IMG/VR virus record: IMGVR_UViG_3300006916_000044
Location: 1 to 64,000 of that record
DNA from: a virus
DNA length: 64,000 bases
Strand: one strand, 5' to 3'
The position numbers and the translations under genes were made by a program. Below are positions 3 through 63,247 of the stretch, one piece after another. Below the pieces are notes generated by a model, which searched no databases, had not been told where the DNA came from, and saw only the letters and a list, made by a program, of their open reading frames with translations. How positions within the stretch are numbered: position 1 is the first letter of the stretch; each line of letters starts with the position of its first letter.

Positions 3-3000
3 AAACAACCATATCATGATAGAGATCCTAATACTACTTGGAATAGTGCAACAGATGGAGCAGGAAATCCAACACCATGTTGGAAAGCAGATCATGATGA
101 ATTTGTAATTCAAAGAAATTTATGGATGTCTGTTGATGCTTCAAGACAATCTAACTTTTTTATGTACCCTTCAGAACCTCAAAATGTAGGTAATGGTCAT
201 AGACCATTTCCATTACATTGTTTAGGAGCTATTACATCAGGTGATAAAACTCCACTTGATGGTACATTAAATACAGCACCTACTAGTTTAGTTGCAAATC
301 CACAACTTTTAACTCCTATAACAACATCAAATCCATATTTTGCATCAGGATATGGTGCATTAGATCAACATGGTTGGGGAACAAATGTTGCTATGCTTCC
401 ATTTACTGCTGCAACATTTCAAGCAGATTTAAATGAATTTGTTGATATACAAAGTTGTAATGATTCAGAATGTTTTTTATTTGTTGTAAAAGATCAACAT
501 GGAAATCCAGTAGAAGATCATCCTATTAAAATAAATACAGAAACAATTGGATATACTGATGAATACGGTTTATTAAGATGGTGTGTAAGAGATGCATCTA
601 TAAACACTCAACATATATTAGATTTATGTACATGTCTTACAACTACAGGTGGATGTAGTTCACAAAAAATAAATATGACAATTACTGATAGCCGATTTAC
701 AAATTGTGCTACAGTAAAACCATTTACTGCATGTACTGAACCAGAAGAAACACAATCTTCAGGTAATGATAAACAAGGTTGTACAGATCCTGCTGCAGAT
801 AATTATGATCCAAGTGCTACTGTTGATGATGGTTCTTGTACTTTTTGTAGTAACTTTAATGTTACAGGAACAGTTGTAGATGCTACTGAAAGTGGTGGCT
901 CATGTGCTAATGACGGTTCAATAACATTAGGTGTTGTTGGTGGAGTTGCTCCATATACTTATGCGTGGTTTGGACCAGGAGGTCCACATACTGGAGACAC
1001 TTTAACAGGTTTATGTGGTGGAGTTTATACTGTTTTAGTAACTGATTCATCTACACCACAACCATGTCAAGCACCTGCACAATTTACAGTAAATCAACCA
1101 CCTTCAATTATTTATGGTTGTACAAATACAGAAGCATGTAATTATGATGCTACAGCAACTAATGATGATGGTTCTTGTTTATTTAGCGGATGTACAAATA
1201 CATCTGCAGTTAATTATGATCCTGCTGCAACAGCAGATTGTAATTGTAATCCACCATCATCTCCTTTATACCAGAATGTTGTAAACTGGGATAGTTGTTG
1301 TACAGCATGTGTAGATGGATGTATGGATCCAAATGCTAACAACTATGATGCAGCAGCAACTTGTGATGATGGTAGTTGTACATATAATTATTCATGTATA
1401 CAAGTAGGTTCAAGTACAGGTTCTACTATTAATCCTTGTGAACAATCTGGACTCACGTATATGGGAACAATATCAATGGGTTGGATGAGTTTTTATACAT
1501 TTGATTGGCAAGCTCCTAATACTTCATATACAAATTTACCAATTAATAGTGTTTATTTTGCTAGTTCAATAGGTTCACCATTACCTGATCAATGTACAGA
1601 TGATGACGGTAATCCTATATGGAGAGCTACTTCTATAACTTTTAAATGGGGAAGTATTGATGGTACATCATGCGCATCTACACCTTGGCCACAAAGTTGG
1701 ACAAATGTTGGTTTAGTTCCTGATGTTGTAGGAGGTGATTCAAAAATATTTAATACACAATCATGGGATGATATAATTTATTTATTAAATCTTACAATAA
1801 CACAAGAAAATCAACAATATATAAATCCAAATACAGGTAATCCAATACAAACTTTTACAGGATTTGATTACAATAGTGTGTATCAGATTATGTTAGCTTC
1901 ACAAGGAACTGCTGCTCCAGGTAATTCTCAACCTTCAGCTAATTTACTTATTCCTGAATGTCCTAACTATATATTTCAACCTCAAGCTGGTAAAGCGGCT
2001 TGTGTATGTACTTCAAATGTTACTCCAACTTGTGAATGTCAACAAATGACAGATGGTTCAGGAACTTATGCTACAATAGATCAATGTCAACAAGATCCAA
2101 ATAGTTGTTGTTATACTGAATCTACTGTAAATTATGTTTGTGTTCCTGGTGGAATAACTAATAGTTGTTCAAATAAACAACTTATACCAACTAGTGCCCC
2201 TGTTTCTACTCAAACAAATCTAGGAGATAATTTAGCTCAAGAATGGACATCTGATCCTGTTAATTGGCCAATTGTTCCTGTACATAACTATAAATTTTAT
2301 GTAGATCAAGGAGGAGGAAATTGTCAAGCATTAACTGGTAATTCTGAATGGTTTATTAAAGAAATAAAATTAACACGTGTTGATACAGGAACTTTTGTAA
2401 GTATTGGAGATGTTCCAGTAGCAAACTCTTGGGCTATTTTACAAGGAGCATTAGCAGGTGCTGGTTATGATGGTACTACATATCCTGATTTATCAAATGC
2501 AGATTATATGACAGTTAAAACCACATTAGCTACATCAGAACCAGGTCAATGGACACTTGAAGTATTTGAGCAAATGTGTAATTGTACATCAGATGGTGGT
2601 TGTGATTGTATAGCAGATCCAAATGGAGATTATACTGATTATCAAACTTGTTTGACTACATGTTGTCAATCAACAACTAACCAATATGGGTGTACAGACA
2701 CAACTGCATATAATTATTATCCTCAAGCAAATATGGATGATGGATCATGTTTATATTGTGATGATATAGTTACTCCAATTGATAATGTTACAACTACAAC
2801 CGTTGATCCATCAAGTGGTGTAAATGATGGTATAATAGTTATTAATCTTTCTACTACAGTTCCAAATGGTATGGTTGTAAGAGTTGATCTTTATGATTCA
2901 TCTTATACATTAGTAGGTACTCAAGATATACCAACAGGTTCATCTGGTACTAATCCAGGTTTTGAAAATTTAGGTCAAGATAATTACACAGCAGTTGCAT

Positions 3001-4529
3001 GTTTAAGACATAATACAAGTTATACTAATGCAGATATTTGTTGTTCTCCTGCAATAAATATTACATTAGGAAATCCTAATCCAAATACAACATATGAATG
3101 TATACCAGGAAGTATAACACAAACTCTTTTTCCAGGTTCAAATACTACACTCTCATTAACTGATCCTGGACAACCTAAATATTACTTAAATAATGTTGCA
3201 ACATGGAATGCAAGTAACACACCTAATGGTTATTATACTGGTGTTGATATAAATGCAGCAAATGTTGCTTTTCTTGATGATTGGTCACAAGGAATTCTTA
3301 ATTATGCTGATACAGGTTCTATCTTAGGATCTAATGCTACAGCAAATACATCATTATCTGTTTCAACACCTTGGTTTTTTAATGGTGCACCTTTAGCTGA
3401 ACAAGCTGCTGGTTCAGGTGCATGTTTAACACAAATGCCAGATGGAACTAATGCTGCTATATTTTATTTAAATTACATTCAAATTAAAGATTCAAGTAAT
3501 AATGTTATAGCTGAAATGAATCAAACTAATAGTGTTGGCTATACAGATTTTACTGTATTGATTGGAGCTGCCCTTAATGATCCTAATTTAGTTAATGCTT
3601 CATGGTCTACTATAGCAGCAGCTTTTAGTAGAGGTTCTGCTTATACATATAGCACTAATTTTCAAGCATTTGGTTGTTCTTATGATTGTAGATGTGAAGA
3701 AAGTCCAACAGGAACATTTAATACTATAGAAGAATGTCAAAATTCTGGATGTTGTAATACTGGATGTACAGATTCACAAGCTGATAATTATAATCCTGGT
3801 GCTGGAATTGATATTGGAAATTGTATATATTGTACAAATTTTGAAGCTGTACTTTTAAATTTTCAAGGCCCTCCTGTACCAAATGGAAATAGTGGTAATT
3901 GGAATGGAGCAACAAATTTAAATATTCCTGGATATGTAGTAATAGCTACAGGTTCTGGTGGTAATCCTCAATCTTATGACACAACTTATTATTATGATGG
4001 TTATAATATGAATCAAGCAGTAGATGGTTTTAATTTATTTCCTGGTAGATATACAGTATGTGTTGAAGATGTATCTACAGGATGTAGAGATTGTATAAGT
4101 AATGTAAACGTTGGAGTTATACCTTTAGCTTGTCGTTCAGGAGCTTCTAATTGGTGGCCAATGACTACTTGGAGAAGTGATAATCTGATAAATTTCATTA
4201 ATGCTGGTAATCCAGATTTTGATAATGCAACTAATTTATATTCATATAGTAATAATATTAATATTCAATGGGGTATAAATGCTACTAATACAGGAGCAGA
4301 AGGAACTACGTTTTGGATTCTTAATTTAAATTCTTCAGTAACTTATACAATTAACGTTTATAATAATGCCACTGGGGCATTACATCAAACTGCATCTGGT
4401 GTAACTGGAGCTGGAGTTGGTATTGCAAATGCTGTACCAGGAACAACATATGATATTGAAATTATAAGAGAAAATGAAACGTGTAGTATAATTGGAATGC
4501 CTTATACATTTAGTCCTCCAGGATTTTGA
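3..4529 (+). CDS. Large Cys-rich repeat protein, putative virion adhesin/fibre (5'-truncated by the window edge)
   Basis: The frame is open from position 3 (KQPYHDRDPN...NLWM) into the 126..4529 ORF. It has six GC(T/M)(D/N)xxAxNY repeats, most ending DDGSC, an SprB-like segment (DGSITLGVVGGVAPYTYAW...LTGLCGGVYTVLVTDS) and an Ig/FN3-like C-terminus. Confidence 0.6.
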   Translation, partial: KQPYHDRDPNTTWNSATDGAGNPTPCWKADHDEFVIQRNLWMSVDASRQSNFFMYPSEPQNVGNGHRPFPLHCLGAITSGDKTPLDGTLNTAPTSLVANPQLLTPITTSNPYFASGYGALDQHGWGTNVAMLPFTAATFQADLNEFVDIQSCNDSECFLFVVKDQHGNPVEDHPIKINTETIGYTDEYGLLRWCVRDASINTQHILDLCTCLTTTGGCSSQKINMTITDSRFTNCATVKPFTACTEPEETQSSGNDKQGCTDPAADNYDPSATVDDGSCTFCSNFNVTGTVVDATESGGSCANDGSITLGVVGGVAPYTYAWFGPGGPHTGDTLTGLCGGVYTVLVTDSSTPQPCQAPAQFTVNQPPSIIYGCTNTEACNYDATATNDDGSCLFSGCTNTSAVNYDPAATADCNCNPPSSPLYQNVVNWDSCCTACVDGCMDPNANNYDAAATCDDGSCTYNYSCIQVGSSTGSTINPCEQSGLTYMGTISMGWMSFYTFDWQAPNTSYTNLPINSVYFASSIGSPLPDQCTDDDGNPIWRATSITFKWGSIDGTSCASTPWPQSWTNVGLVPDVVGGDSKIFNTQSWDDIIYLLNLTITQENQQYINPNTGNPIQTFTGFDYNSVYQIMLASQGTAAPGNSQPSANLLIPECPNYIFQPQAGKAACVCTSNVTPTCECQQMTDGSGTYATIDQCQQDPNSCCYTESTVNYVCVPGGITNSCSNKQLIPTSAPVSTQTNLGDNLAQEWTSDPVNWPIVPVHNYKFYVDQGGGNCQALTGNSEWFIKEIKLTRVDTGTFVSIGDVPVANSWAILQGALAGAGYDGTTYPDLSNADYMTVKTTLATSEPGQWTLEVFEQMCNCTSDGGCDCIADPNGDYTDYQTCLTTCCQSTTNQYGCTDTTAYNYYPQANMDDGSCLYCDDIVTPIDNVTTTTVDPSSGVNDGIIVINLSTTVPNGMVVRVDLYDSSYTLVGTQDIPTGSSGTNPGFENLGQDNYTAVACLRHNTSYTNADICCSPAINITLGNPNPNTTYECIPGSITQTLFPGSNTTLSLTDPGQPKYYLNNVATWNASNTPNGYYTGVDINAANVAFLDDWSQGILNYADTGSILGSNATANTSLSVSTPWFFNGAPLAEQAAGSGACLTQMPDGTNAAIFYLNYIQIKDSSNNVIAEMNQTNSVGYTDFTVLIGAALNDPNLVNASWSTIAAAFSRGSAYTYSTNFQAFGCSYDCRCEESPTGTFNTIEECQNSGCCNTGCTDSQADNYNPGAGIDIGNCIYCTNFEAVLLNFQGPPVPNGNSGNWNGATNLNIPGYVVIATGSGGNPQSYDTTYYYDGYNMNQAVDGFNLFPGRYTVCVEDVSTGCRDCISNVNVGVIPLACRSGASNWWPMTTWRSDNLINFINAGNPDFDNATNLYSYSNNINIQWGINATNTGAEGTTFWILNLNSSVTYTINVYNNATGALHQTASGVTGAGVGIANAVPGTTYDIEIIRENETCSIIGMPYTFSPPGF
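777..3830 (+). repeat. Dispersed ~21-aa GCTDxxAxNYDxxAxxDDGSC coding repeats (6 copies, starting at 777, 1116, 1188, 1317, 2688, 3762)
   Basis: Read directly from the translation. Confidence 0.9.
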
Positions 4530-53599: not shown

Positions 53600-53725
53600 T
53601 TATTTAGAAGTTTTAAGTATTAGTGCTTTTAGTTTTTCTTTAAGCCATTCATGATCTGGATGCTTAACTGTAGCTAAAAGTTTAAATGATATTTCTTTTG
53701 CTGTTTTATTTATTATTTTTTCCAT
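53600..53725 (-). CDS. Small hypothetical protein (41 aa, MEKIINKTAKEISFKLLATVKHPDHEWLKEKLKALILKTSK)
   Basis: Translated by hand; not in the ORF track. Its start overlaps the thioesterase 3' end and its stop abuts the convergent stop at 53599. Confidence 0.55.
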   Translation of the reverse strand: MEKIINKTAKEISFKLLATVKHPDHEWLKEKLKALILKTSK

Positions 53726-54104
53726 TGTATTTATCTTTTACTTTATGACTAATTGGTATTGGCTCTCCTTGCTCATCTATTCTAACAAATGTCATGTTAG
53801 TTGATAGAACAACAGCTTGTCTACCGTTATATACATTATGTGATCTAGCTTCTAAACCAAGTTTAATACTTGTTTCTCCTACTTTATGTACTTTACCGTA
53901 TATTTTAATAAGCTGACCTTCTTTTGTTGGTCTTTTAAATATACATTTATCTATAGAGACAGTCACCATTCTAGGTGTGTCACAACATTGAGCTGCAAAA
54001 GCAGCAGCGCTTGCATCTAACCAAGCTAATAATTTTCCTCCAAAAAGATTTCCGTGAAATCCTAAATCTGATTTTTTTACTGGATGTGTATTTAATAAAT
54101 CCAT
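53706..54104 (-). CDS. Hotdog-fold acyl-CoA thioesterase (YciA-like)
   Basis: DLGFHGNLFGGKLLAWLD..VTVSID..G.TS..TFVRIDEQGEP signature. Confidence 0.9.
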   Translation of the reverse strand: MDLLNTHPVKKSDLGFHGNLFGGKLLAWLDASAAAFAAQCCDTPRMVTVSIDKCIFKRPTKEGQLIKIYGKVHKVGETSIKLGLEARSHNVYNGRQAVVLSTNMTFVRIDEQGEPIPISHKVKDKYNGKNNK

Positions 54105-56249: not shown

Positions 56250-56558
56250 ATGGATTCTCAACAAGATATAATAGTAATGGGGCTAAGAATTGATAATATG
56301 GAAAAAAAATTAGATGAAATTGATAAAAAATTAGATTCTTTAACTATCAAATTATTAGATCCAGATAATGGTTTTGTTACCAGGGTAAATAAGAATACAT
56401 CCTTTAGAGATAAAATGGGTGAGTTTTTACCGTATTATGAGGATACTATTTCAGAAATGGAATCTTTAAAGAAATGGAAAAACAATGTTACTAAAGCACT
56501 TTGGGTAATTTTTACTGCAGTTATTGGTTGCATAGTTAAACTAATGTTCTTTGCATAA
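56250..56558 (+). CDS. Coiled-coil protein with C-terminal transmembrane helix (holin/XhlA-like architecture)
   Basis: Heptads IDNMEKKLDEIDKKLD; hydrophobic ALWVIFTAVIGCIVKLMFFA end. Confidence 0.55.
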   Translation: MDSQQDIIVMGLRIDNMEKKLDEIDKKLDSLTIKLLDPDNGFVTRVNKNTSFRDKMGEFLPYYEDTISEMESLKKWKNNVTKALWVIFTAVIGCIVKLMFFA

Positions 56559-57134: not shown

Positions 57135-57416
57135 ATGGCAAAAGAATTAAATGAAGATACTAGTTTTAAAATAAGTCTAAAAACATTAGGAGGAATAGCG
57201 GTTTTAATTTTTACTCTTGTTGGTATGTGGTTTACTTTACAAGCTGATATTGCTGAAGCAAAAGAGTTACCAGCTCCACCAGATCCAGAAGTTACACGTA
57301 TGGAATTTGACATGAAAGATCAAATGATACGTAGCACAATTATGACTACACAAGAAGATGTTAAAGAAATAAAAGAGTCTCTTGAAAAAATAGAAGATAA
57401 ATTATATAATAGATAA
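57135..57416 (+). CDS. Single-pass membrane protein with C-terminal coiled coil
   Basis: TM segment LGGIAVLIFTLVGMWFTL, Pro linker, then heptads VKEIKESLEKIEDKL. Confidence 0.7.
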   Translation: MAKELNEDTSFKISLKTLGGIAVLIFTLVGMWFTLQADIAEAKELPAPPDPEVTRMEFDMKDQMIRSTIMTTQEDVKEIKESLEKIEDKLYNR

Positions 57417-57543: not shown

Positions 57544-57895
57544 TAATATAAATACTGTATGGAAAATTTTTCTAACATACTTACTGTTGTTATTTTGCTT
57601 GCTTGTCTCATCGGATGCTTATTCTCAGATAACAGTGAAACATTTTAATGCAGGATGGAATAGTGCTAATGATGTAGAATGGTTCTCCAAATTAAAAGAG
57701 TGTGATAAAAGTTCTCTTTTAATAGATAAAGATGACAATCAAAAAAAATATCAAATAGCTGTTGTACCAACTATTATAATATTTAAAGATGATGAAGAGG
57801 TAAAACGTTTTCAAGCAGATCTAAGTTTTAAAATGGTTGCCACTAGAAAAGAAATACAGGATTTTATAGATGAATTAATAATGAGTGATTTTTAA
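57527..57895 (+). CDS. Exported thioredoxin-fold protein lacking CxxC (start uncertain: ATG 57488 or GTG 57527)
   Basis: Signal peptide ..LLVSSDAYS/Q. FNAGWNSAN replaces FxAxWCxxC. cis-Pro motif YQIAVVPTIIIFKDDEEVKRF. Confidence 0.75.
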   Translation: MGKVDNNINTVWKIFLTYLLLLFCLLVSSDAYSQITVKHFNAGWNSANDVEWFSKLKECDKSSLLIDKDDNQKKYQIAVVPTIIIFKDDEEVKRFQADLSFKMVATRKEIQDFIDELIMSDF

Positions 57896-57896
57896 A

Positions 57897-60359
57897 ATGA
57901 AAAAATTTTTATTTATAGTATTTGCAATGATTGCACAAATAGCTGTGTCTCAAAACTCATATGTAGTTATAGAAGCACAGTATGATTCATGGGGACCTGC
58001 AGAATCTCAATTTTATATTACAGATGCTCAAGGTGATACCGTATATCATCATCAACCTACAGTGCAAAGTGAATATTTATTAGATACTTTATTTATAAAT
58101 GCACAACCTCTTACTGCTATTCTTTTAGATCAATATGGAGACGGATGGCAAGATACAGGCATGCAAGGTTATTTTAGAACATGGAATAACTGTCAAGATA
58201 CAATAGTAGAATTTATATCTTCACCTACAAATTACTTTGCTACAGAAATAATAAACTTTAATTTGGGTCCATGTCAACCAAACGGACCTCCACCTCCACC
58301 ATGTTTACCTGCAGTAGTTATAATTAATTTAGATCAGTATCAATCAGAAACGTCTTGGGAGATTACTGATACTTTAGGTTTTGTAGTAGCATCAGGTAGT
58401 GGTTATGGTTCACAACCAGATTATGGAACTGTTGTTGTTCCTGTATGTTTACCACAAACGGTATTAAATTTTACAATATTTGATTCTTATGGGGACGGTT
58501 TAAATGGTTCACTTTGGCAAGGTCAAGATGGATCTTATTTTGTTAAACAATGTGGTGATACATTAGTATATGGTACAGATCCAGCTTTTGGAACAGATAG
58601 TACACACGTATTTGCTATTGATACATGTCCTCCTATATATGGATGTACGGATGATGATTATGTAGAGTGGAACCCGTTTGCAGATACTGATGATGGTAGC
58701 TGTCAAACATTAAAAGTTTTTGGATGTATTGACTCAACAGCATTTAACTATGATTCTACTGCAAATACAATGGACCTTGTTCCACAATGTGAATTTACGT
58801 TAGTGTTGCATGATCTTATGGGTAATGGTTGGGTAGGATCACACTTATCTTTAGAATTACCTGACACTTCTTTCTCTTTTACGCATACTGGAGGTTTTAA
58901 TGATGAATATCAATTTACTATAGATGCACCAGATCCTGCCGTGTTTAGATTTCATATATCTCCACAGGCAACACTAACTACTATAGAATGTGGGTTTACG
59001 CTTATGAATCCAGAAGGTGATACATTAGTTAGTGTTCAACCTCCATTTATACAACCTTTGTTTCCATATTCTTTTATTACTAATTGTGGTAATACATGTA
59101 TAGAAAAAGTTTTTGGTTGTACGGATAGTCTTGCTTTAAATTATTATGATGAAGCTAATACAGATGACAGTTCTTGTTATTATGTGGCAGGGTGTATGAA
59201 TCCGCTGTATTTAGAATATGATACAACTGCTGATTTTGATGATGGATCATGTGTAACTTTAGTTGTTGCAGGATGTATGGATTCAACAGCACTTAATTAT
59301 GATCCGTTAGCAAACGTAGAAATACCAGGGTCATGTATAGCAATAGTAGAAGGATGTATGAATCCTTTAGCATTTAATTATAATCCTAATGCTAACGTTG
59401 ATGACTCAACATGTATACCTGTTATAGATGGTTGTACAAATCCTATAGCACTTAATTATGATTCAACCGCTAATACAGACGATGGCTCTTGTGTATTACC
59501 AATACCAGGGTGTACAGATCCTAATGCACTTAACTATAATCCACAAGCAAATGTAGATGACTCAAGTTGTATAGATATAGTTTATGGTTGTACAGATGCA
59601 TCAATGTTTAACTTTGATCCTTTAGCCAATGTAGATAATGGATCATGTATACCTTTTGTTTTTGGTTGTACAGATTCTACTATGTTTAATTTTAACCCAT
59701 TAGCAAATACAGATGACAATAATTGCATTCCTTTTATTTATGGTTGTACTGATCCAGTTGCGCTCAACTACAATCCGTCAGCTAACACAGAAGATTTTAG
59801 CTGTATTGATTATATTTACGGTTGTACTGATAGCACTGCCATTAACTATGATCCGTTGGCTAATACTGACAATGGTTCTTGCATTGAAGCAATCCCAGGT
59901 TGCATGGATCAGACGGCATGGAATTACGAGTCTTACTATAATGTTAATGATTCTCTTTCTTGCCTGTACGATGCTGGTTGTATCACTGGCCCTGGAAATC
60001 CTTATTGGTTAAATGATGGATGTTATGCTTGGGTAATTGATGTAGATGATTATTGTTGTGAGAATGCATGGGACGCATCATGTCAAACAATGTATGATTA
60101 TTGTGAGTTAGGATGGCCAACAAATTTAAATGATATGTCAGTTATAGGAATTGTAGTTTATCCAAATCCAACATCCGGTATATTAAGAATTGAAACTAGA
60201 TTAAATATAGAAGTTCTAGTAATTGATATGCAAGGTAAAATAATTATAGAAGAAGAAAACATAAATACAATAGATCTATCAACTTATTCAAAAGGAATTT
60301 ATAACTTAAAGATAACAACTGATGGAAAATCATTTATTAATAAAATTATAAAACATTAA
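57897..60359 (+). CDS. Secreted Cys-repeat protein with T9SS type A C-terminal sorting domain
   Basis: Signal peptide MKKFLFIVFAMIAQIAVS/Q. DxYGDG beta-sandwich domains. 13 GCxD/N repeats. CTD VYPNPTSG..IDMQGK..IDLSTYSKGIYNLKI..KIIKH. Confidence 0.88.
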   Translation: MKKFLFIVFAMIAQIAVSQNSYVVIEAQYDSWGPAESQFYITDAQGDTVYHHQPTVQSEYLLDTLFINAQPLTAILLDQYGDGWQDTGMQGYFRTWNNCQDTIVEFISSPTNYFATEIINFNLGPCQPNGPPPPPCLPAVVIINLDQYQSETSWEITDTLGFVVASGSGYGSQPDYGTVVVPVCLPQTVLNFTIFDSYGDGLNGSLWQGQDGSYFVKQCGDTLVYGTDPAFGTDSTHVFAIDTCPPIYGCTDDDYVEWNPFADTDDGSCQTLKVFGCIDSTAFNYDSTANTMDLVPQCEFTLVLHDLMGNGWVGSHLSLELPDTSFSFTHTGGFNDEYQFTIDAPDPAVFRFHISPQATLTTIECGFTLMNPEGDTLVSVQPPFIQPLFPYSFITNCGNTCIEKVFGCTDSLALNYYDEANTDDSSCYYVAGCMNPLYLEYDTTADFDDGSCVTLVVAGCMDSTALNYDPLANVEIPGSCIAIVEGCMNPLAFNYNPNANVDDSTCIPVIDGCTNPIALNYDSTANTDDGSCVLPIPGCTDPNALNYNPQANVDDSSCIDIVYGCTDASMFNFDPLANVDNGSCIPFVFGCTDSTMFNFNPLANTDDNNCIPFIYGCTDPVALNYNPSANTEDFSCIDYIYGCTDSTAINYDPLANTDNGSCIEAIPGCMDQTAWNYESYYNVNDSLSCLYDAGCITGPGNPYWLNDGCYAWVIDVDDYCCENAWDASCQTMYDYCELGWPTNLNDMSVIGIVVYPNPTSGILRIETRLNIEVLVIDMQGKIIIEEENINTIDLSTYSKGIYNLKITTDGKSFINKIIKH
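59115..59963 (+). repeat. Tandem array of 11 ~26-aa GC(T/M)(D/N)xxAxNY..A..D..SC repeats
   Basis: Counted in the translation; ~78-bp periodicity with degenerate DNA sequence. Confidence 0.9.
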
Positions 60360-60723: not shown

Positions 60724-61518
60724 ATGAATATTCTAGGTTTAGGTTTAGGTATACACAAAGGTTCTACTGGTACTGCTAGTAGCGTATTAACTCCTGCAGA
60801 AATTGCAGGTGGTGCTGATATTTGGTTTGATGCTACTCAAAGAGAAAATGTTACAGAAAATGGTGGTAGAGTTACTAGTGTAAGAAATTCTGGAAATCAA
60901 AGCAGCCAACCTAATCCTGGTGTAGTAGATTGGGTTTTAAACTATATAGGTACAGAAGCAGCTTATGAGCAGACTGGTGGACAAAACAATTTACCATTTT
61001 TAAAATTTACTGGTAGTGAGTCTTTTCAAATAGAACAGACTGATAATCTTGGCACTGCTGCAAATGTGAATTATGGTACAGAATATACAATTATGATAAT
61101 TCAAGATGTTGGAGGAACAGGAACAACAAGAGGAGTAACAGGTGCAAGAAACCCTAATGGATTTGTGTGTAGGTTTAATAATTCTGATGTTTTAATACAG
61201 TCAGTATATAATAGTTCTTCATTAGCAAGTGATTCAATTCTTCCAACAGGAGGTCAAGGTTTTGGTATTATTACATGTAATACAAGTGATACAAATAATA
61301 CAAATAGTGTTAGGTTTAATGCACAGTCTAATGCTCCTGCTACTGTAAGTGGAACTCCTGTAAGTACAAGTAATATTTTTGTAGGTAAAGGAAATAATAC
61401 TACTCAATTTTATGAAGGTAATATATATGAGTGGGCATTATTTAAGTCATCTTTATCTAGTGCTGATTTAGATTTATTAGATGCTTATGTTCAAGACAAA
61501 TATAATTTTACATATTAA
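60724..61518 (+). CDS. Concanavalin A/LamG-like virion decoration or fibre-tip protein
   Basis: N-terminal LGLGLG; IWFDA..GGRVTSVRN..; FYEGNIYEWALFKSSLS..YVQDKY. Confidence 0.6.
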   Translation: MNILGLGLGIHKGSTGTASSVLTPAEIAGGADIWFDATQRENVTENGGRVTSVRNSGNQSSQPNPGVVDWVLNYIGTEAAYEQTGGQNNLPFLKFTGSESFQIEQTDNLGTAANVNYGTEYTIMIIQDVGGTGTTRGVTGARNPNGFVCRFNNSDVLIQSVYNSSSLASDSILPTGGQGFGIITCNTSDTNNTNSVRFNAQSNAPATVSGTPVSTSNIFVGKGNNTTQFYEGNIYEWALFKSSLSSADLDLLDAYVQDKYNFTY

Positions 61519-61519
61519 G

Positions 61520-62569
61520 ATGAAATATTTATTATTCATATTAGCTTTTTTTAGTTGCATGTCAGCAAACGGTCAGGTATTTAAAGATTTTTTTAAGTAC
61601 TCTACTTTATATTCATCAGTTAACGGTGGTAATTCAATATCAGACCAGACAGTATACGATGTTGCTACAGGTACTTTATTAAATGATGTTATAGAAACAC
61701 CATACAATTATACGTTAACGTTTGGGATTAGAAAGATTCAGAGATTTCAATACGAACCACAGTTACCATTTAAAGATGGTACAGAGACATCATTTAACGA
61801 TGCAGCTACTATAGGGAGAGTTAAGAAAGGTTTTGAGTATTTATTTGAGGTTGATTATGCGAGGCAACAGGGAATAGAGTTTATAAATCAAAATCACTTT
61901 TTACGATACAACACAACAAGATGGTTAGCACGTGTAGAATATTTACAAGACGGTTTTGCAGATATAAAATATTTTCAAGGTTCACAAAGATTAAGGATTA
62001 ATTCAAAGGGTAAACTCTCTTTTAACGTGGGGGCATGTCAGAGAATTTCAGAGCCCTATGGATTCAATCCGCTTGAACAATGGATGCTACCTAATGGATC
62101 ATTACACTATACACAATTGGCCCTAGATCAAGGTTACAATGTAATCTTTGACGGAGAAGGCGGTACAGAATATACTGATCCATCAGGCGCTACCGTTGCA
62201 ACAAGTAAAGAAGTGTGGGAAGCAGTAGTGGTTCCAGAAATGCTAGTTGACTATGTTGCTGCTGAGAGAAACAAATTACCTGCTCAATGGGTTCATTCTC
62301 TTATTATAGGTTTTGATTATTATAAGTATACTAAAGATATATGGATTCATGCTTGGGGTAATGTACTACCTTATCACTATAATGACGGAGGCACATATTC
62401 ATATCATAACTTTAATGATGGAGAACAATGGTATGACTATTCTGGCGGTATGATTTTTGGTTATAAAGTAACAAGAAATCTTGGTGCGTTTGTAGAAGGT
62501 AAGTATAATAAATACTGGGACAGAGAATGGTATGATTTCAAATTTGGTATTAACTATAAAGTGTTTTAA
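61520..62569 (+). CDS. Outer-membrane beta-barrel protein
   Basis: Signal peptide MKYLLFILAFFSCMSANG/Q, alternating aromatic strands, C-terminal beta-signal FKFGINYKVF. Confidence 0.75.
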   Translation: MKYLLFILAFFSCMSANGQVFKDFFKYSTLYSSVNGGNSISDQTVYDVATGTLLNDVIETPYNYTLTFGIRKIQRFQYEPQLPFKDGTETSFNDAATIGRVKKGFEYLFEVDYARQQGIEFINQNHFLRYNTTRWLARVEYLQDGFADIKYFQGSQRLRINSKGKLSFNVGACQRISEPYGFNPLEQWMLPNGSLHYTQLALDQGYNVIFDGEGGTEYTDPSGATVATSKEVWEAVVVPEMLVDYVAAERNKLPAQWVHSLIIGFDYYKYTKDIWIHAWGNVLPYHYNDGGTYSYHNFNDGEQWYDYSGGMIFGYKVTRNLGAFVEGKYNKYWDREWYDFKFGINYKVF

Positions 62570-62571
62570 TT

Positions 62572-62709
62572 ATGGCTAAGAAGAAAAAAACAAAGAGTAA
62601 AAAAGATGCATGTTATCACAAAGCTAAAGCTAAGTACAGAGTATTTCCTAGTGCTTATGCTAGCGGATATATTGCTAAATGTAGAAAACGTAGAGGTAAG
62701 ATAAAGTAA
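62572..62709 (+). CDS. Small Lys-rich protein, DACY..PSAYASG..CR motif (DUF5872-like N-terminal half, 45 aa)
   Basis: Translated by hand: MAKKKKTKSKKDACYHKAKAKYRVFPSAYASGYIAKCRKRRGKIK. TAATG-coupled to 62709. Confidence 0.75.
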   Translation: MAKKKKTKSKKDACYHKAKAKYRVFPSAYASGYIAKCRKRRGKIK

Positions 62710-62981
62710 TGGCAGTTAGAAAAACAAAAGCAGGAGCTAATCTTAAACGTTGGTTTAAAGAGAAGTGGAAAGACGAAAAGGGTAATCCTTGTGGTTCTTC
62801 TAAAAATAAGAAGACTAAAAAGTGTAGACCTACTAAACGTGTTAGTAAGGAAACACCTAGAACATGGGGCTCTTTATCTAAATCACAAAAAGCTAAAGCT
62901 GTTGCTGAGAAAAAGAAAGTGGGGATGGGCCGTAGAACTAGTTCTATCAGAAAAGGTAAGAAAAAATCTAAAAAGAAGTAA
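62709..62981 (+). CDS. Lys-rich protein, LKRWFKEKW..CRPTKRVS motif (DUF5872-like)
   Basis: Motif recognition. Confidence 0.7.
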   Translation: MAVRKTKAGANLKRWFKEKWKDEKGNPCGSSKNKKTKKCRPTKRVSKETPRTWGSLSKSQKAKAVAEKKKVGMGRRTSSIRKGKKKSKKK

Positions 62982-62983
62982 TT

Positions 62984-63247
62984 ATGGCAAGTAAAAAGAA
63001 AGGTGCAATGAAAGGCTGTTCTATTAAGAATGGTTGCAAAAGTAAAAAAGGTGGACTTACTGCTAAGGGCCGTAGAATGATTAATAAAAAAACTGGCTCT
63101 AAACTTAAAGCTCCACAACCAGGAGGAGGTAAACGTAAGAAATCATACTGCGCTAGATCAGCCGGTCAGATGAAAATGCATAACGTTAACTGTAGTAAGA
63201 CTCCAGATAAAAGAATTTGTAAAGCAAGAAGACGTTGGAAATGTTAA
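62984..63247 (+). CDS. Lys/Arg/Cys-rich small protein (GGLTAKGR..SYCARS..RRRWKC; DUF6321-like)
   Basis: Motif recognition. Confidence 0.65.
   Translation: MASKKKGAMKGCSIKNGCKSKKGGLTAKGRRMINKKTGSKLKAPQPGGGKRKKSYCARSAGQMKMHNVNCSKTPDKRICKARRRWKC

Follow-up and report, generated by a model that had tools for sequence, protein, structure and literature searches.

A marine phage gene for a predicted stalked fibre with a type A sorting domain of the type IX secretion system and an exchangeable C-terminal tail

The stretch of viral DNA analysed here (64,000 nucleotides, hereafter the window) corresponds to bases 1-64000 of the IMG/VR virus record IMGVR_UViG_3300006916_000044, which has 91,370 bases and a CheckV completeness of 79%. 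One of its genes, an intact open reading frame (ORF) running on the plus strand from 57897 (ATG) to 60359 (stop included) and encoding 820 amino acids (aa), probably specifies a phage-made cargo for the type IX secretion system of the host (T9SS): an exported, enzyme-free stalked fibre that would be shown on the surface of the infected cell and act with co-conserved envelope proteins. Features of the sequence and of the predicted fold, as well as conservation across phages, are the grounds for this proposal, and they suggest the host T9SS as the export pathway. An alternative GTG start at 57885 would add four residues to the ORF.

Sorting domain and signal peptide

The two ends of the protein carry the features most relevant to export:

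60150..60359, plus strand: type A T9SS C-terminal sorting domain (CTD), aa 752-820, and stop codon, assigned from hidden Markov model (HMM) scores, the AlphaFold model and fold matches
57897..57953, plus strand: predicted Sec signal peptide with signal peptidase I (SPI) cleavage, aa 1-19, assigned from sequence features, with a helix at residues 2-16 in the model and cleavage predicted between AVS and Q

Residues 752-820 hold YPNP, DMQGK, IDLS..KGIY.LKI and a terminal KIIKH, which include all the CTD hallmarks named in a preliminary description of this DNA, and the search of the families PF18962 and TIGR04183 proposed there was positive with full-length coverage of both profiles. PF18962 scored 51.3 bits (cut-off 27; E 1.4e-13; profile positions 1-74 of 75) and the type A family TIGR04183 scored 47.1 bits (cut-off 23; E 1.7e-12; positions 1-72 of 72), both alignments running to the C-terminus of the protein. 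Moreover, in the AlphaFold2 model (built on 41 homologues, with a mean pLDDT of 68.5 and values of 75-90 in the domains), residues 752-819 form a sandwich of seven strands at a pLDDT of about 84, in keeping with the 3+4 seven-strand immunoglobulin (Ig)-like sandwich of known CTDs (PMC11285876). Foldseek matched this part of the model to 8glk_D, the NucA CTD bound in the T9SS, with a probability of 1.0, a TM score of 0.79, a root-mean-square deviation (rmsd) of 1.9 A and 31% identity, and the VIA fold comparison gave Z 10.1 to 8glk_D, 8.9 to 5ag9 and 8.7 to 8qb1, the CTDs of RgpB, FspA, RemA and mirolase lying at Z 8.3-8.9. The best PDB sequence match of the protein is the 75-residue NucA CTD chain of entry 8GLK. 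The CTD residues PNPT, G780, G800, Y802 and K819 are invariant in 19 divergent homologues, and the NCBIfam search of the protein listed only type A-related matches and no type B CTD (TIGR04131). Profiles and model together mark a genuine, bona fide type A sorting domain and exclude a chance resemblance.

The N-terminus, MKKFLFIVFAMIAQIAVS followed by QNS, shows a basic n-region (MKK) and then a hydrophobic h-region; positions -3 and -1 are taken by small residues and position +1 by a glutamine (Gln20). The Sec signal of the preliminary description was therefore recovered, the call being made from these n-, h- and c-region features only, and among phage orthologues each of the 33 distinct N-termini likewise shows a small residue and then Q behind the h-region. 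Glutamine at +1 corresponds to the 'Q-rule' of Bacteroidota SPI substrates (PMC5837995), which has already been noted for genes of Porphyromonas phages (PMC10367356). In three fibre orthologues the plain signal peptide is replaced by a lipobox-like Cys and then ..PKKCC(A/G/S)Q, and the same arrangement occurs at 15 of 32 distinct N-termini of the candidate outer-membrane barrel encoded near the fibre (examples for both proteins are L006:9935-12412, L028:3123-4187 and L011:1433-2524); these N-termini are possibly a lipoprotein variant with two extra Cys just ahead of the conserved Gln.

As the preliminary description had stated for the window, no T9SS machinery accompanies the gene: profiles of SprA_N and PorP_SprF (PF11751) found no match over the whole record, while the SprA model recovers full SprA genes in Flavobacteriales genomes. 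Since a phage contig free of these genes encodes a protein with both a CTD and a Sec signal, export would depend on the host. The fibre gene is the only one on the record with a match to PF18962.

Architecture of the passenger

Between the two terminal signals, the following parts were distinguished:

57954..58277, plus strand: head domain D1, aa 20-127, a modelled beta-sandwich with the motif DQYGDGW, pLDDT 75-90
58302..58631, plus strand: head domain D2, aa 136-245, motif DSYGDGL, the most conserved part, with many invariant columns
58641..58790, plus strand: two Cys repeats linking D2 and D3, aa 249-298, repeat HMM independent E-values 2.5e-14 and 5.9e-13
58785..59090, plus strand: head domain D3, aa 297-398, a PLAT/C2/CBM-like sandwich with the motif DLMGNGW, pLDDT 83 for the core model
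59115..59975, plus strand: stalk of 11 tandem 26-aa repeats, aa 407-693, consensus GC.D..A.NY.P.AN.DDGSC, two Cys each
59970..60122, plus strand: helical Cys-rich 'CC' module, aa 692-742, helices at 708-737 in the model, five Cys

D1 and D2 are paralogues (hhalign probability 98.4%, E 7e-15), joined by a Pro-rich linker in the model, and D3 is distinct from both; D1 is variable or missing among some orthologues. D2 resembles Ig/macroglobulin-like sandwiches with Z up to 6.2 only, and the best fold matches of D3, the PLAT domain of 1lox and the Ca-dependent CBM of 2xhh (Z 6.7 each), are both generic. Neither of two models nor any of four fold searches of the protein revealed an enzyme fold, and whole-model Foldseek matches to ferlins and laminin were discarded as multi-domain noise (rmsd above 20 A). 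The CC module, in which DYCCENAWDASC is found and which is the penultimate one, is near-invariant across phage and distant homologues. The preliminary description had proposed a stalked adhesin: the non-enzymatic arrangement of heads on a stalk holds, while the role as adhesin gains nothing from the heads, which match only generic beta-sandwiches (Z below 8).

The 26-aa Cys repeat, with 13 copies in total, keeps its Gly, Asn and Asp positions, and its Cys, Gly and Asn columns are invariant across orthologues. The triplet D(S/T)(A/I/L/V/M/T), which is the O-glycosylation sequon of Bacteroidota, occurs 17 times in the protein against 4.2 +/- 1.9 in shuffled sequences, mostly in this repeat. About six copies of the repeat are also present in an ORF that lacks a signal, has 1467 aa or more and gives a weak Hoc-like match (126-4529, plus strand, running off the contig at its 5' end), and further copies in a protein of Synechococcus phage S-CAM3 annotated as virion structural. 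Because the repeat is common to virion and secreted proteins, it looks like a general extracellular spacer. Its occurrence in these two proteins, and the frequency of Ig-like domains on virions, would also suit a structural tail or head fibre whose CTD is merely an Ig-like tip. This is extremely unlikely, since the conserved cleavable Sec signal of every orthologue would take the protein out of the cytoplasm, where virions are assembled; furthermore, the neighbours are likewise exported proteins, and no PHROG structural family matches the fibre.

A conserved four-gene module

Relatives of the fibre are encoded on 43 IMG/VR contigs, with core identities of 31-95%, and nearly everywhere the gene belongs to the same module, whose other members in the window are:

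57135..57416, plus strand: 93-aa protein with an N-terminal transmembrane (TM) helix and a coiled-coil tail, kept beside the fibre gene in nearly all loci at 56-96% identity
57488..57895, plus strand: conserved secreted protein of about 117 aa, Cys-less and thioredoxin-fold-like, ending 1 nt before the ATG of the fibre gene
61481..62569 (likely start 61520), plus strand: secreted protein of about 350 aa, a candidate outer-membrane beta-barrel, with a signal peptide followed by Q

The 93-aa protein gave no family match. The thioredoxin-like neighbour lacks a CxxC motif; of 33 orthologues, 30 carry a signal peptide followed by Q at +1, and the profile matches of this neighbour are sub-threshold only (PF00085, E 0.013; TIGR01068, E 5e-4 and 20 bits against a cut-off of 96.8). 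The barrel candidate lies either just downstream of the fibre gene or just upstream of the 93-aa gene. It ends in ..GINY.IF in 23 of 36 orthologues, the last residue being usually aromatic, and its leads in the protein atlas, OmpG, autotransporter and Phage_OMP clusters, reach no more than 0.93-0.94; it has no relatives in Pfam, NCBIfam, PHROG or PDB sequences and no match to PorP/SprF, PorV or another T9SS family.

The module recurs in phage genomes that are nearly complete, with sizes of about 66, 95 and 110-120 kb, and each of five relatives that are 94-100% complete contains exactly one PF18962 gene, the orthologue of the fibre gene. The divergence of the fibre follows that of its neighbours weakly (rho 0.35, p 0.055); its core identity being so loosely tied to theirs, the fibre is best described as a fast-evolving, mosaic member of a stable module. 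A recent capture, for which the preliminary description had suggested a phylogenetic test, is contradicted by the conservation of the module in at least 43 viral contigs, as well as by the GC content at third codon positions (GC3) of the gene, 0.15, which agrees with the 0.12 +/- 0.04 of the phage background (the larger ORFs of the record). Throughout the window GC3 is very low (0.06-0.25 per ORF, mean 0.12), as would fit streamlined, very AT-rich hosts.

A first profile scan of genome contigs returned no loci, and a second one returned four (L047, L048, L049 and L050), in metagenome-assembled genomes (MAGs) labelled Parvibaculum, Rickettsiales, Flavobacteriales and Nitrosopelagicus; one of the contigs has 120 kb, the size of a complete phage. 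Since these species-representative MAGs bear incompatible labels and all four loci carry the phage module, they were rejected as cellular homologues and read as probably mis-binned phage contigs.

Just upstream of the module (56250-56558, plus strand), a protein of 102 aa with a C-terminal TM helix has a weak XhlA/hemolysin-like match (phrog_1193, E 2.8e-5), below the Pfam threshold, and is possibly holin-associated. In L049, an endolysin gene with PG_binding_1 and Amidase_2 (L049:12720-13601) lies directly 3' of the module, with queuosine-pathway-like genes and a CxxC thioredoxin farther downstream. Both genes would suit a lysis or egress accessory, in which the four genes would attack the envelope at a late stage, the 93-aa protein being holin- or i-spanin-like, the barrel sitting in the outer membrane and the fibre aiding breakdown or release. 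The endolysin is nonetheless confined to that single locus, its homologue having been found neither in the other loci nor, as judged by Amidase_2, in the record of the window; the XhlA match is sub-threshold, and no feature of the fibre points to activity on membrane or wall. We regard this explanation as quite unlikely.

An exchangeable tail

The region downstream of the CC module was compared in 34 distinct orthologue tails. Canonical CTDs of 83-86 aa form 15 of them, and the other 19 have 49-57 aa and neither YPNP nor a recognisable CTD, with the consensus ..GPLPKR..LIMITDLLGRP..KN..LFYIYDDGTVEKKLIK. Within this tail a domain of about 40 aa, ITDLLGR..KN..LFYIYDDGTVEKK, was delimited (L010:12137-12283 and other orthologues of this class). 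Four near-complete relatives of the short-tail class have no PF18962 match anywhere. Mapped onto a maximum-likelihood core tree, the tail types require a minimum of five switches (bootstrap range 5-6), and one of these lies between the well-supported sisters L011 and L026.

The short tail is also found outside phages. Of the 401 Flavobacteriales genomes sampled, 133 gave matches to its profile at 60-72 bits, with 30-60 candidates in each at first look; nearly all of these genomes have 0.8-2.3 Mb. Wherever individual loci were inspected, the tail reaches to within one residue of the stop codon in proteins that have signal peptides, leucine-rich repeat proteins among them (cellular examples are L065:1150-1620, L066:493-1629 and L067:1495-2511). 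The distribution of these matches indicates that the short tail is no phage invention. Pfam and NCBIfam gave no match to it at E up to 1. Type A CTDs are present as well in the genomes that contain it, and a check of five such genomes for SprA was positive in three. An hhalign comparison with the type A CTD placed the tail in the expected register, on the last strands, at a non-significant probability of 7%; for this reason the short tail is not called a truncated CTD.

At least five tail swaps on a conserved passenger amount to a natural domain-swap experiment, which suggests that the two tails are functionally interchangeable and that the short one may be a minimal T9SS signal or the signal of a parallel route. 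We tentatively propose, as a possibility that may well not hold, that streamlined marine Flavobacteriales use it as a so far undescribed C-terminal signal for sorting or anchoring. A CTD does not always function in the T9SS of a species other than its own (PMC11285876), and because of this possible incompatibility, swapping of the tail to suit the host is a reasonable reading.

The tails also bear on two other explanations. According to the first, the protein is not a T9SS cargo in practice, being periplasmic or mounted on the outer membrane by the barrel-like partner, with its C-terminal domain docking onto this partner instead of onto SprA/PorV. The barrel candidate is indeed co-conserved in nearly all loci whichever tail the fibre has, the tail is exchangeable, and a cargo with an adjoining barrel resembles the pairs of type B CTD and PorP. 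This arrangement is unlikely all the same: HMM and fold both class the CTD as type A, the candidate barrel has no match to T9SS families, and both tail types are abundant C-terminal domains of host proteins that have no phage partner.

The second explanation, already raised in the preliminary description, is that the protein mainly serves as a decoy or plug, occupying or saturating the host T9SS and so blocking export of the phage receptor or other cargo. The CTD is genuine, and receptors dependent on the T9SS exist, as the phage resistance of T9SS and gliding mutants of F. psychrophilum implies (PMC9804748). Nevertheless, a plug needs only the tag, yet the multi-domain passenger of 730 aa is strongly conserved, a sign that the mature protein is of importance; a CTD is missing from more than half of the orthologue tails; and small genomes of this kind already export 36-67 type A cargos each, so that saturation by one more is improbable. 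Such a main role is unsupported and very unlikely, and the preliminary interpretation as a whole is partly supported.

Cellular counterparts

A profile of D2, the linking repeats and D3 found matches in 219 of the 401 Flavobacteriales genomes. D2 or the Cys repeat accounts for most of these matches, which often fall in ORFs of 700-6900 aa on megabase contigs; for D3, 52 of the 401 genomes have weaker counterparts. In three chromosomal cargo proteins (L061, L062 and L063), Trypsin_2, Peptidase_S8, PPC, MAM, SprB repeats or Omp28 accompany a D1/D2-type domain, and each protein also has a type A CTD and a signal peptide followed by Q at +1. Each of the elements D1/D2, D3, Cys repeat and CTD thus occurs in chromosomal Flavobacteriales cargo, in genomes that have SprA, and judged by these matches the fibre is assembled from modules that are also used by host-type chromosomal cargo. 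The full D2-repeat-D3 core was found among the 401 genomes only on a phage-like contig of G001. Longer homologues with the full architecture (P0016 and P0113) lie on contigs of 277-301 kb, which may be cellular or not. Searches of GenBank phages by tblastn gave nothing beyond the Cys repeat, the protein atlas contained no named relative above 0.9, and no PHROG matched the fibre at E up to 0.01.

Phage and host context

The record encodes a family A DNA polymerase (34% identity to its phi14:2 counterpart), a primase, a helicase, exonucleases and a ribonucleotide reductase, as well as a row of giant ORFs, the longest of 5148 aa. One of the giant ORFs is similar to virion structural proteins from Cellulophaga phages phi17:2 and phi4:1, from Flavobacterium phages and from a crAss-like gut phage, with 23-26% identity between the 2756-aa ORF and those of the gut phage and the Cellulophaga phages. 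As the giant virion-protein ORFs match phages of Flavobacterium and Cellulophaga, a Bacteroidota host is indicated. The Crassvirales hallmarks (capsid, portal, terminase and virion RNA polymerase genes) were not seen on the contig, which is truncated at its 5' end, and the evidence on this likeness is only indirect.

Other genes of the window include a 4HBT-family thioesterase gene (53706-54104, minus strand) that adjoins the ribonucleotide reductase gene on the opposite strand, and two genes for small, very basic proteins, DUF5872 (62709-62981, plus strand, 54 bits) and DUF6321 (62984-63247, plus strand, 62 bits), both kept near the four-gene module in many related phages. A scan of promoters and terminators was uninformative (38 sites against 39 expected), its design not being meant for Bacteroidota or phage polymerases.

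Proposed mode of action

In an infected marine Flavobacteriales host, the pre-protein would be exported by Sec and cleaved by SPI before Gln20. The fibre would then fold in the periplasm, where each of its 13 repeats probably closes one disulfide and its D(S/T)x sites may be O-glycosylated. Host SprA/PorV would recognise the seven-strand type A CTD and carry the fibre across the outer membrane, with removal of the CTD there, leaving a mature fibre of three beta-sandwich heads on a long repeat stalk. With heads on a stalk and no recognisable enzyme, the mature protein most likely binds or covers something at the surface of the infected cell, and two uses are plausible: adhesion, or a masking of receptors at the surface, as in superinfection exclusion or to shield the progeny. 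The fibre probably works with the inner-membrane coiled-coil protein, the periplasmic thioredoxin-fold protein and the candidate outer-membrane barrel, and its C-terminal tag would be an exchangeable cassette matched to the host.

Several points weigh against this proposal of a T9SS-exported surface fibre. Secretion of the protein by the T9SS is a prediction, made for a host that is itself inferred, and with 19 of 34 tails having no CTD, canonical T9SS export is not universal in the family. The stalk is modelled at a pLDDT of 55-75 only, and the head domains have no specific structural relative, the domain-level searches having returned Z scores such as common arrangements also give. The absence of an enzyme fold is the sole ground for a binding function, and the mature fibre may either stay on the cell or be released.

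Relation to known systems and significance

The closest parallels are type A cargo proteins, such as NucA, FspA and RemA of F. johnsoniae (PDB 8GLK, 8GLJ and 8GL6) and RgpB of P. gingivalis, which share with the fibre the Sec signal and the seven-strand CTD of about 70 aa. In contrast to them, the fibre is encoded by a phage, and its passenger is a new combination of unmodelled beta-sandwiches, the 26-aa Cys repeat and the helical Cys module. The chromosomal L061-L063 cargo is similar in its D1/D2-type sandwich, Q at +1 and type A CTD and differs in its enzymes and other modules. Cargo with a type B CTD is encoded beside a PorP/SprF carrier, as in SprB/SprF. The likeness to this pair consists of a cargo gene beside a probable outer-membrane barrel, but the CTD of the fibre is type A and its neighbour has no PorP_SprF match. 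Llp of T5 and Cor of phi80/HK022 are small phage lipoproteins that mask known receptors. They offer a functional analogy only, that of a phage protein sent to the outer surface of the host, and have no homology to the fibre.

Phage genes with T9SS sorting domains have been described before. In 'cryophages', genes with type A sorting domains were presumed to hijack the T9SS (Bellas et al. 2020, PMC7468147); these have endoglucanase/GH39 or PA14 passengers and lie in a variable island of a freshwater cryoconite phage, whereas the present gene encodes a conserved enzyme-free fibre in a fixed module of marine phages. ORFs with T9SS sorting domains, one with BACON repeats, were also reported on crAss-like contigs (de Jonge et al. 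2019, PMC6949934), in that case in gut phages and without analysis of signal peptides, module context or tail exchange. In the searchable literature, we found no experimental test and no description of the fibre family or of the four-gene module. Phage-borne T9SS tags are thus already reported at the level of annotation, and it is the tail exchange and the unmodelled host tail that merit most follow-up.

In Bacteroidota, the cell surface is coated with T9SS cargo, among which are adhesins that serve phages as receptors. If the proposal is true, abundant ocean phages remodel the surface of the flavobacteria they infect, with possible effects on particle attachment, superinfection and carbon turnover in blooms. 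Moreover, the family is a ready-made comparison of two tails on one passenger, and could reveal the minimal requirements of T9SS recognition or a second sorting route.

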